The position numbers were made by a program. Shown piece after piece: positions 1 to 3,000 of a stretch of DNA of 11,953 bases; the first letter of the stretch is position 1; the number at the start of each line of letters is the position of its first letter. The stretch comes from a virus (Duplodnaviria; Heunggongvirae; Uroviricota; Caudoviricetes). The DNA lies in the IMG/VR virus record IMGVR_UViG_2563366976_000008, positions 1-11,953 of that record. The stretch is one strand, 5' to 3'.

Positions 1-3000
1 TCATTTGTCGATTTCAATTTTGTCCCATTCCCGTCCACGGCTGTCCCTATACCGCGCCGCCATTGAATCTGATTTATGCCCGAGAAGACGTTGAGCAAAC
101 TTATCGCCAATCTGGTTCCGGTATAGCCTCGCTGACAGGCTACGCAGTTCATGGAATGTTGGCGGGTTTCCATCAAATGAGAGTCCAGATGCATTTCTCG
201 CCTTTGTAAAATACTTTGATACTGTTTTCGGGGAAAGCGGATCGTGATGCTTTGATGCGATTATAGTTTCACTGCTGCTGGCCTCCCTGCATTTCTGTAG
301 TGTATCAGCCAATGAGATATTGAGCGCGTCAATCGTTAGCGTTAGCGGAATGGCGAGTTTAGCCCCTGTTTTACTCTGTTCAATGTGAAGATGGTTGTCG
401 TTTATGTCTGACCATTTCATTCTGCACAAATCGCCGACTCTCTGCCCTGTAACGACGGCCAAATCCATCGCCAGCCTTAGCCAGATAGGGAGAGGTTCGG
501 CTGCATGGTAAATCTCGACATACTCATTAGCTGTCAGCCTTGAGCGCCTTACTTCTGACTTTGCTGTACGGGTTGCTGTTACCGGATTCGTTGCCACATG
601 CCCCTCGGCTATTGCTTCACGAAAAACGTCAACAAGGGTTGACCTGATTAATTTTGCGGAAGCTGCTTTACCTTCCGCTACGTAGGTGTTTAGCATTGCT
701 GCCACATCTTTCGTTGATATGTCAGTGAGCGGTTTGTCCGGCAATTTTCTTCGGATTGCCCTGATTTTGCTGGCGTAGTCGAGTAGAGTTTTCGGCCTGA
801 TCCCCCTTTCGGTGAGGATTCTTTCATATCGGTCAAGCCACACATGAAGAGTGATTGCGTCACCGCCTTTAATTCTGTCTATCAGTGATTTGCGTCCGCT
901 GTCTGAGAGTAACTCAATATTGGCCTGTATTGCTTCAGTGATTGCTATCCTCCTGTCTCGGCCTAATCCAAACTCTTTACCCGTCCTTGGGTCCCTGTAG
1001 CAGTAATATCCATTGTTTCTTATATAAAGGTTAGGGGGTAAATCCCGGCGCTCATGACTTCGCCTTCTTCCCATTTCTGATCCTCTTCAAAAGGCTACCT
1101 GTTACTGGTCGATTTAAGTCAACCTTTACCGCTGATTCGTGGAACAGATACTCTCTTCCATCCTTAACCGGAGGAGGGAATATCCTGCATTCGCGCACCC
1201 ATCGACGAACTGTTTCAAGGCTTCTTGGGCGTCGCTGGCGAGCGTTCCACTCCTGAAGTGTCAAGTACATCGCAAAGTCTCCGCAATTACTCGCAAGGGA
1301 ACGAGTAGTGGTTGATTTTTCTCCAACAAAAAAGGAGCCGAAGCTCCTTTGATGATTAAAATTCGAATTGTCTCGCCCGAAGGCTTTTCAACATTGGTCT
1401 TGCCCGTTCGAAAACGGCGCTTGCCTGGTCAAGTCGTGTCGCCTCCCTGAGCAGTACATCTCTGTTTTTCGTCACCGCATAGAAGGTTTCAAACGCAATG
1501 TCATACAGCTTACTCGCGTATGATGAGTTAAGTTCCTTCATTATCGGGTACAGGCGTTTGCAGATGTCCTGTGCATTCTCCATCTGTACCTGCATGTAGC
1601 AGAGGAGGATGATTTCCTCGTCTGTGAATTGCTGCGCTGGTTGCATGCTGCGAAGTTTCTTTTCGCACTCGATGAAGTATCGGCGTATCTGGCGGCCTTT
1701 TTCGTTGCGCTCGACCATCGCAGTTTCTTTGGCCGTATCGAGGGTGAGGTGATAGTCTTTGCTACGGCGATCGCCTCCTCGACCTTTGATTTCCCGATTT
1801 GGGGAAACCAAAATATAGTCCTGATTTTCAACGAAACCATATTCAGCAATGCGTTCTGTAATCCACGATGCAAAGCGTTTACCTACCCCAAGAAAAGTAT
1901 GTAAATCGCGAGCATTAACGAGAAGAGTGGTTTCGTTGGCGATAGTGCCGTTGAATACGGGGATGAGTTGAATAGCCATAATCATGACTCCTGACGTTTT
2001 AGTATTGACTGCCACCTTAGTGGGGTGGCGGGCTTCAACTACCGCGTCAGACGGCGGAGCTTATTTCCCGAAAGGGTGTTCTATTAGGCTCTCTCGACCC
2101 GCCATAGATATGGCGATACCTGTAAACAGGCATAAAAAAGCCGCAAAGCTATCGGGTGCGGTTGACCGCTGACGTTGTAGTGCGGTCAGTATGCGATAGC
2201 TCTGGCGGATTTGTCAAATCATGTAGCCTTTATCCTGCTGTAAGCCGCGCCATTCGGGATTTTCCCCATATTTGGGGAAAACTATCTGCGAAGTATTCAC
2301 CTTTGACGGCAAGTTGCAGGTTAGCCATTACCTCACCTCCAGTCTCCATACCGCCTGACCAATCCGGCTGGCATGGGTATCTTTGGATACTGTTCCGTCT
2401 TTAGCCAGCTCCATAAGAATTTTGCGCAAATCTGCCGAACGCCATTCTTCATCAGGAAATTCCTTCTCCATTGCCAACCGCAGATTCCAGGTTGCTATCG
2501 TGAATGGATATTCACCGCCGAGAGCTTTCTCTTGTAGGGCAGCACGGGAACGCATCACCTGCAAAACCTTCTCTTTTACATCCATCATTTCGCCTCCTGT
2601 GGCGGTTCTGGTAGCGGCATCCAGTGGGTTACCTCCTTGAGATACAGGTCTTTGCCACCACCGTCATCCCAAGTGGGCTTGCCATCATTAAACCAGTCGC
2701 CATATACGCCGACCTGAGTGTTGGGGATGCTTGGTGGGTAGTTGTTTTTAAAGTCAGCAGCTAACACATAGCATTGTCGCTCTCCCATTTCTGGCATTCG
2801 CTCACTACAGCTTATCCAACTATCCGGAGTTACCGGAAGCGAGAACGGCAGCACATCTCTGTGAACAAGTTTTTGCTGTGACAGGTTATCCAGAACTTTC
2901 TGTACTGCTGCATCACCGAATACACCAAGCGCATCTGCCATAACTCCTACAACCTGATAAGCCTCAGCGCATACCGTGGATAAACCATCCGGAATTACCG

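Follow-up and report, generated by a model that had tools for sequence, protein, structure and literature searches.

A probable P1 immI-type antisense RNA cassette upstream of an antirepressor gene in a lambdoid prophage

Introduction

In the immI region of phages P1 and P7, expression of icd-ant is controlled by the antisense RNA c4, as Citron and Schuster reportedly described in 1990, and P1 c4 acts in trans. Here we describe a likely instance of the same design in a lambdoid prophage, a self-contained antirepressor control cassette in which a structured RNA would pair with the leader of the antirepressor gene ant and block its translation. It lies at 2217-1979 on the minus strand of an 11,953-nucleotide (nt) stretch of Caudoviricetes DNA (IMG/VR record IMGVR_UViG_2563366976_000008, positions 1 to 11,953), hereafter called the window. 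In annotated P1 immI the promoters are followed by a1, b1, the c4 RNA, a2, b2 over the ribosome-binding site (RBS), and then icd and ant; the corresponding Rfam families are C4 (RF01695) and c4-a1b1 (RF03163). A 2025 review describes P1 c4 as a processed 77-nt RNA and lists c4 for P1 and P7 only (PMC12197685). Homologues of c4 and the a1b1 motif were reported by Weinberg et al. (2010) to be widespread in Proteobacteria and phages, including tetraloops on stem P2.

A related system is isrK-orf45(STnc1160)-anrP of the Salmonella prophage Gifsy-1. In the work of Hershko-Shalev et al. (2016), anrP translation rose more than 100-fold when the short terminated IsrK was supplied in trans, and the C4 position gave rise to STnc1160, a processed RNA that is stable and accumulates (PMC4825925); both RNAs are highly expressed in lysogens. 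That paper links IsrK to a P1 immI-type design only indirectly, through P4 CI RNA (PMC4825925). With Rfam we found isrK/c4-a1b1 followed by C4 (69 bits) directly upstream of the antirepressor gene anrP. The C4 match coincides with the published 'orf45'/STnc1160 region (34131-34214, minus, in our Gifsy-1 entry L128), and isrK overlaps the c4-a1b1 match; judged by its sequence, the IsrK locus looks like a P1 immI-type module.

Other phage RNAs are more distant in design. N15 CA RNA has the same plan as P4 CI RNA, and P22 sar is a true cis-antisense transcript from the strand opposite the 5' end of ant. The P4 CI RNA is processed from a leader transcript, has complementary sites on both sides of its gene and serves the control of immunity or anti-immunity functions (PMC4825925). 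Compared by description only, P4 CI and N15 CA differ from what is proposed here in that they reportedly act by premature transcription termination and not by RBS occlusion. The small antisense RNA sar blocks antirepressor translation in a lambdoid phage, according to the 2025 review (PMC12197685); unlike sar, the window RNA is on the same strand as ant, upstream of it, and would pair through short loop sequences. The family sRNA-Xcc1 (RF02221), first described in Xanthomonas campestris, is integron-borne in the literature, where it is still treated as a virulence-linked, trans-acting small RNA (sRNA) with predicted distant targets (PMC12189769, PMC2996969). In the left arm of Stx phage 24B (first 12 kb) no ant gene is annotated, and the published ant expression data were not used here.

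Results

A candidate c4-type RNA in the gap upstream of ant

The cassette occupies part of the gap between ant and an open reading frame (ORF) of 86 amino acids (aa). The first-pass annotation had called this gap ORF-poor, and we found that minus-strand ORFs of at least 60 aa are indeed absent between the Ant ORF (1356-2015) and the 86-aa ORF (2328-2588). For the gap it had offered three possibilities, namely a micro-protein, a small RNA and a site regulating the AntA-like gene. The small-RNA proposal is supported by a feature that it had not singled out, the RNA at 2103-2019, and the regulatory-site proposal by target sites at 2182-2169 and 2008-1988. The features of the cassette are as follows.

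2188-2217, minus: sigma-70 promoter-like site TTGACA-18 nt-CATACT, from which the leader/RNA/ant unit is putatively transcribed
2164-2187, minus: leader hairpin GACCGC/GCGGUC, carrying a1 and b1
2182-2177, minus: candidate upstream target a1, CACUAC, in the leader hairpin
2175-2169, minus: candidate upstream target b1, ACGUCAG, in the leader hairpin
2134-2161, minus: intrinsic-terminator-like hairpin, CCGCA (2161-2157)/UGCGG (2145-2141), followed by C and U6 (2139-2134)
2019-2103, minus: candidate c4-type antisense RNA of the sRNA-Xcc1 subclass, about 85 nt, assigned by Rfam match, our own model and covariation
2103-2097/2033-2027, minus: closing stem P1 of the RNA
about 2091-2058, minus: stem P2 of the RNA
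2056-2041, minus: stem P3 of the RNA, with loop b' UCUGACG at 2051-2045
2042-2035, minus: junction a' of the RNA, GUAGUUGA
2011-2029, minus: hairpin GCCACC-CCACUAA-GGUGGC directly 3' of the RNA, overlapping the closing stem by 3 nt
about 2008-1999, minus: candidate downstream target a2
1997-1990, minus: candidate downstream target b2, ACGUCAGG, overlapping the ant Shine-Dalgarno (SD) sequence GGAG at 1991-1988
1356-1979, minus: ant, the putatively regulated antirepressor gene, with an AntA N-terminal and a P22 antirepressor C-terminal domain

In a permissive scan, Rfam sRNA-Xcc1 matched 2103-2019 over its full length (49.6 bits, E 4e-8), and the same family passes its threshold in the near relatives PA28, POCJ13, S1249 and L119 (L numbers denote our related loci), with 53-74.5 bits. 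Because these relatives score so well, the window RNA is best classed, on sequence grounds, as a divergent copy of the sRNA-Xcc1 family. Rfam C4 gave a weak match at the same place, too low in score for membership of that family. At gathering thresholds Rfam gave no match in the gap, the sole match in the window being the cIII thermoregulator described below, and a scan of the window for transfer RNA and tmRNA gave no match.

Relatives were gathered with a pattern for the conserved P2 core, which retrieved more than 120 phage contigs, and a covariance model, R2, was built from 91 non-identical phage copies. RNAalifold on a MAFFT alignment had returned 3 base pairs only, owing to stem indels between two subfamilies; hence the structure was set by hand and the copies were realigned to the model. 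In the window, R2 gave a single match at 2013-2109 on the minus strand (60.6 bits, E 5e-13). Among 103 distinct sequences, the three-stem fold, with P1 enclosing P2 and P3, had 89.5% of cells paired, a fraction inflated by fitting the alignment to the model, compared with 75.1% in shuffles and 29-45% in slid controls; the slid control carries the same bias yet comes out far lower. Pairs changing on both sides numbered 17 of 23, with a covariation score of 0.386 versus 0.138. The P2 tetraloops were c4-like, GNRA in 68 and UUCG in 15 of the 103 copies. An NCC 3' tail, as in c4, was present in 68 (ACCCC in the window), and together with the acceptor-like closing stem it suggests excision by RNase P.

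Two hairpins flank the RNA. The one at 2011-2029 folds with -10.8 kcal/mol (z -3.2); it has no U-tract and is therefore no obvious terminator. In PA28 its stem is wholly swapped for AUCACCAG/CUGGUGAU and the loop CCACUAA is retained, while in another subfamily the equivalent loop carries an a2-like CUCAAAA. The second, CGCCAU-AUCU-AUGGCG at 2100-2115 (minus), shares 4 nt with the 5' strand of the closing stem. Retained in the closest subfamily (L004, L009, L023 and L119) and missing in PA28, it might be an alternative fold or else belong to the precursor or its processing.

Folding of the whole stretch, which the first-pass annotation had recommended on both strands, beat shuffles in both cases (z -4.8 and -4.3). 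These scores point to neither a strand nor an element; the comparative evidence does.

The P3 loop co-varies with two target sites

The P3 loop UCUGACG is complementary to ACGUCAG at the ant SD and again about 70 nt upstream of the RNA; at the SD it would pair with CGUCAGG, which overlaps GGAG. PA28 is about 80% identical to the window here, and it has CUUUGAAG where the window loop has CUGACG. The site before its ant SD changes to match the loop (ACGUCAGGAG in the window versus ACUUCAAAGGAGG in PA28), and the upstream site does likewise (ACGUCAGCGG versus ACUUCAAAGCGG).

We extended this comparison to 86 loop variants by measuring the longest exact loop complement in the 60-80 nt downstream and the 130 nt upstream and applying a permutation test; this measure took the place of RNAduplex, which on long segments was too noisy for cognate and non-cognate pairs to be told apart. 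Cognate complements had a mean length of 6.43 nt downstream, compared with 4.2 nt for non-cognate ones, and of 7.00 nt upstream, compared with 4.4 nt; in neither case did any of 20000 permutations reach the observed value. The 3 nt directly after the downstream match were GAG, part of the SD, in 32 of the 86 variants, and CGG directly followed the upstream match in 64. For the window RNA, the predicted duplex with the upstream target has an energy of -23.9 kcal/mol, which was equalled by 8 of 1000 shuffled targets. A third ACGTCAG copy in the window (8815-8821, minus) is antisense to a 179-aa plus-strand ORF (8337-8876); it is probably a coincidence, about 0.7 copies being expected by chance.

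The genes downstream of the RNA were then compared across the family. Among 70 downstream proteins, Pfam gave Bro-N in 15, Rha in 14, AntA in 9, KilA-N in 8, P22_AR_N in 6 and ORF6N in 5, so that by domain assignment most carry an antirepressor-type domain. The window ant product matched AntA (3.7e-27) and P22_AR_C (2e-9), and in identical Escherichia coli prophages the gene is annotated as phage antirepressor Ant. Most loci have about 105-121 nt between the conserved RNA core and the start codon; the window ant starts 40 nt after the RNA, with no ORF, and hence no icd-like coupled gene, between them.

Promoter-like and terminator-like elements in the leader

The promoter-like site at 2217-2188 is the sole one within 1800-2600 and is identical in PA28, VR50 and L119; the prophage of E. 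coli VR50 agrees with the window at every position of 2327-1950. Such a site was found in 59 of 102 family members, compared with 12% of shuffles; these sites cluster at a distance of 100-120 nt before the RNA. Downstream of it lies the inverted repeat GACCGC...GCGGTC, which the first-pass annotation had reported; its existence was confirmed and its position corrected by one base, from 2165-2188 to 2164-2187. This hairpin belongs to the putative control system, since it carries the upstream target site.

A T5 or longer run occurred 15-70 nt upstream of the RNA in 73 of the 102 family members, and in 68 of these 73 it was abutted by a stem of at least 4 base pairs (bp), compared with 27% in shuffles; the complementary stems came in 30 different sequences. 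A consensus terminator scan had missed the leader terminator because its 11-nt loop exceeds the limit of 8, and it was revealed by the family comparison. The window thus has the IsrK-type layout of promoter-like site, target-site hairpin, terminator-like hairpin and c4-type RNA.

The predicted leader fold depends on the 5' end. For an RNA starting at 2187 the leader hairpin and the terminator hairpin are both predicted, and for one starting at 2181, where transcription from the local promoter probably begins, GCGG (2169-2166) pairs with CCGC (2161-2158) and the terminator stem is lost. P1 shares the GCGG-ACAA-CCGC arrangement, and some subfamilies do not. It is a speculation from these models that the GCGG/CCGC pairing might serve as an anti-terminator, freed when the RNA binds b1; the idea fits the window, PA28 and P1 and fails in several subfamilies (L028, L013). 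The sequence CTGTTTACAG (2120-2111) was considered as a LexA box and dismissed by eye for its wrong spacing.

Comparison with P1, Gifsy-1 and sRNA-Xcc1

The order of parts in P1 immI is the same as in the window, including a terminator-like hairpin, and the distance from b1 to the RNA is 67 nt in both. In both, b' is in the P3 loop and a' in the junction after P3, and the stable P2 tetraloop of P1 c4 is likewise found in most members of the window RNA family. The leaders can be aligned, with GCGGnCAACCGCA...UUGCGGnnUUUUU in P1 at the same place. Unlike P1 c4, which R2 misses as it also misses the Gifsy-1 C4, window-type RNAs have a longer P2 with a highly conserved UAAUAnAAnACCC-loop-GGGnAAUA. 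A C1-type operator as in P1 was not identified in the window, and the host differs as well, being a lambdoid prophage with the cassette in the pL operon beside xis-int.

Gifsy-1 resembles the window in being a lambdoid prophage in which a promoter gives a short terminated leader sRNA (IsrK), with read-through into a c4-type RNA and then an antirepressor gene whose RBS region matches the RNA loop (GGUGAU/AUCACC). It differs in its RNA subclass, C4 and not sRNA-Xcc1, and in the published model, which relies on translational coupling and on a 45-codon ORF; an ORF of this kind is absent between RNA and ant in the window. In addition, the Gifsy-1 locus adjoins antQ, whereas the window cassette adjoins xis-int. 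The best match in sequence and structure remains Rfam sRNA-Xcc1, with the same three-stem fold and conserved P2, although the window evidence supports an antisense role on the neighbouring gene instead of the role ascribed to sRNA-Xcc1 in the literature.

Points against the proposed cassette and alternative explanations

Besides the inflated paired fraction, several findings weigh against the proposed cassette. The 49.6 bits of the RF02221 match are below the gathering threshold of 53, and Rfam C4 reaches only 15.5 bits at the RNA site (E about 2; threshold 45). In 1960-2240 there was no match to isrK (RF01394) or c4-a1b1 (RF03163) at E up to 10, and both families do match P1, Gifsy-1 and L119. 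Folded as a single sequence, the RNA is ordinary (z -1.33), and its minimum-energy structure lacks the family P2. In the window b' and b2 are exactly complementary over no more than 6 nt (7 if one G-U pair is counted), and the energy of the downstream duplex is marginally better than that of shuffles (47 of 1000). The icd gene of P1 is lacking and ant follows the RNA directly. Lastly, the pairing might take place in cis, inside a single transcript, instead of in trans.

This last point defines the strongest alternative, in which the ant mRNA begins with a structured leader whose loop pairs with the RBS of the same molecule, as an alternative-structure switch, and no freestanding antisense RNA exists. 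It shares its base pairing with the antisense cassette and differs from it in topology alone. The RNA and both targets are on one transcript, 20-70 nt apart; the Gifsy-1 read-through transcript is translationally inactive through cis pairing of leader and C4-region sequences (PMC4825925); and the hairpins at 2115-2100 and 2029-2011 overlap both strands of the closing stem, making alternative folds possible. However, P1 c4 is a processed RNA of 77 nt and acts in trans, stable processed STnc1160 accumulates at the same position in Gifsy-1, the conserved NCC tail and acceptor-like closing stem suggest RNase P excision, and a second, upstream copy of the target would be needless for a pure cis element. 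We therefore regard a purely cis-acting leader as rather unlikely.

We consider it very unlikely that the RNA instead acts in trans on unlinked host or virulence genes, as described for sRNA-Xcc1 in Xanthomonas and Xylella, with its adjacency to ant being incidental. That the best Rfam match is sRNA-Xcc1, cast in the literature as virulence-linked and trans-acting on distant targets (PMC12189769, PMC2996969), is in its favour, but the variable loop tracks the adjacent RBS and the upstream site in 65-80 of the 86 variants, the neighbouring genes are overwhelmingly of antirepressor type, and a conserved distant target is incompatible with more than 80 loop sequences.

Gene relics in the left third of the gap

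The gap as a whole might also be debris of recombination between two mosaic modules, functionless and with accidental hairpins and ORF. The features of its left third, 2330-2218, are as follows.

2290-2328, minus: first 13 codons of an ASCH-domain gene (MANLQLAVKGEYF), a relic with which the 32-codon ORF begins
2222-2289, minus: relic of an internal AntA/AntB-family fragment, FSPNMGKIPNGAAYSRIKAT, in a third frame, carrying the palindrome at 2260-2281
2230-2328, minus: 32-codon ORF, a chimera of the ASCH and AntA relics

In tblastn and blastn searches, many phages and E. coli prophages had annotated ASCH-domain genes whose N-terminus is encoded by these 13 codons (MANLQLAVKGEYF), and an ASCH-domain gene is common at the corresponding position in lambdoid phages. 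The relic matches the intact ASCH protein of L126 at 12 of 13 residues, and the intact ASCH gene of L113 departs from the window directly after GAATACTTCG. The relic FSPNMGKIPNGAAYSRIKAT shares 15 of its 20 residues with the intact AntA/AntB protein of L125 (residues 87-106), and its DNA block falls within annotated antA/AntB genes in other E. coli genomes. Mosaic junctions lie at 2327-2333, about 2287 and about 2226-2220. The first of these (2321-2333) is exactly at the ASCH start, where relatives read GTGGCTAA, a GTG start overlapping the TAA stop of an upstream DUF551 or DUF4752 gene, and the window reads TAATGGCTAA, with ATG and a different upstream gene. Judged from these alignments, 2330-2218 is most likely a non-functional scar, an ASCH gene start fused to a fragment of an AntA gene.

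The left third is thus demonstrably debris, bounded and divided by the mosaic junctions. For 2217-1979 the comparative data refute such a reading: about 1000 E. coli genomes retain the sequence from 2220 down together with ant, and a covarying RNA family with co-varying targets occurs in more than 100 diverse phage contigs. A functionless gap is accordingly improbable in the extreme.

Both elements that the first-pass annotation had emphasized were present. The palindrome TTTTCCCCA-TATT-TGGGGAAAA is exactly at 2260-2281 and was unmatched, even with 2 mismatches, in 200 dinucleotide-preserving shuffles of the window; the 32-codon ORF (ATG 2328-2326, stop 2232-2230) overlaps the stop of the 86-aa ORF through TAATG, and a good SD, GGAGGTGAGG, precedes its start. 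Neither stood up as a functional element. The ORF fuses 13 ASCH codons to an out-of-frame AntA relic, and the micro-protein reading was rejected on that ground. It is intact in 6 related loci, with two peptide variants only and too few substitutions for gauging selection (3 of 5 differences between the window and PA28 are synonymous in its frame), and most E. coli copies of the ant module, whose homology begins at about 2226-2220, just upstream of the promoter-like site, are without this segment. The palindrome as an operator or terminator was rejected as well, as coding sequence inherited from an AntA/AntB gene: in the window it forms the codons for SPNMGK within the 20-codon relic, and the intact gene has the near-identical palindrome TTTCCCCAAATTTGGGGAAA, encoding SPNLGK; the single arm change found (T to C) is uncompensated, and no U-tract follows. 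A translated micro-protein, or a palindrome controlling ant, is therefore scarcely credible in spite of the good SD and coupling signal, an ORF intact in 6 loci and a perfect palindrome never seen in shuffles.

Genomic context, distribution and tandem copies

The window corresponds to the early-left arm of a lambdoid prophage; its genes are on the minus strand. The match to the cIII thermoregulator confirms this context, and beyond the 86-aa ORF are a dATP/dGTP pyrophosphohydrolase-DUF551 protein and an Ea22-like protein.

4-1074, minus: lambda-type integrase
1055-1270, minus: excisionase
2328-2588, minus: 86-aa ORF
7123-7181, minus: lambda cIII thermoregulator RNA (Rfam RF01804, 88.5 bits)

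Part of 1950-2400 matched 1026 of 5426 complete E. coli genomes (about 19%), mostly from the promoter-like site into ant, and close relatives of the cassette were found in the Shiga-toxin phages PA28, Stx2-86, P13374 and TL-2011c. In the three annotated records inspected the RNA is unannotated, and the window copy is sub-threshold in Rfam.

Several related loci have tandem RNAs. The Aggregatibacter phage S1249 (L003, a Pasteurellaceae phage) has two RNA copies (2283-2369 and 2517-2600) upstream of ant, the second with 82% DNA identity to the window RNA region; this identity suggests that the cassette was exchanged recently across families. In L119, isrK/c4-a1b1, C4 and two sRNA-Xcc1 copies lie within about 600 nt (3138-3758), with a second isrK and C4 pair 5 kb away (8205-8404). 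Tandem c4-type RNA arrays were also seen in L004, L008, L009, L044, L062, L115 and L003, and in several tandem loci two copies are 200-1000 nt apart, each with its own loop sequence.

Discussion

We observed upstream of ant an RNA family match with a covarying fold, a loop that co-varies with two target sites, antirepressor-type neighbours and conserved promoter-like and terminator-like elements. By analogy with P1 and Gifsy-1, a translation block, processing, action in trans and a role of the leader may be inferred. In the proposed mechanism the transcript would run from the promoter-like site (2217-2188) through a1/b1 (2182-2169), the terminator-like hairpin (2161-2134), the RNA (2103-2019) and a2/b2 (2008-1990) to the ant AUG at 1979. 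The RNA, probably cut out of this same transcript as P1 c4 is, would use b' (UCUGACG) in its P3 loop, together with the neighbouring unpaired junction a', to bind the ant leader; the RBS would be covered and antirepressor synthesis would stay off in lysogens. A short terminated leader RNA bearing the upstream a1/b1 copy might be released, and this copy would compete for the antisense RNA or modulate termination, which could set a threshold for derepression, as shown for IsrK in Gifsy-1.

Antirepressor control of the c4 type is already known, and what is new here is an unannotated instance of it. Antirepressors can trigger prophage induction, including in the Shiga-toxin phages that carry close relatives of the cassette, and recognizing the RNA gives a testable account of how ant is kept silent in lysogens. 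The loop sequence is a likely determinant of specificity in cross-talk between prophages. The comparison also joins three names under one design: P1 c4, Salmonella IsrK/STnc1160 and Xanthomonas sRNA-Xcc1.

More tentatively, and with some doubt on our part, sRNA-Xcc1 might generally be the antisense arm of a P1 immI-like switch in which loop classes insulate or couple co-resident prophages, the leader acts as a sponge or sensor and arrays address several targets. If this were true, the hypervariable address loop of 7-9 nt, with more than 80 variants, would define orthogonal specificity classes in polylysogenic E. coli; the terminated a1/b1 leader RNA would be a sponge or termination sensor that sets the threshold; and tandem arrays of two to four RNAs would be multi-address controllers.

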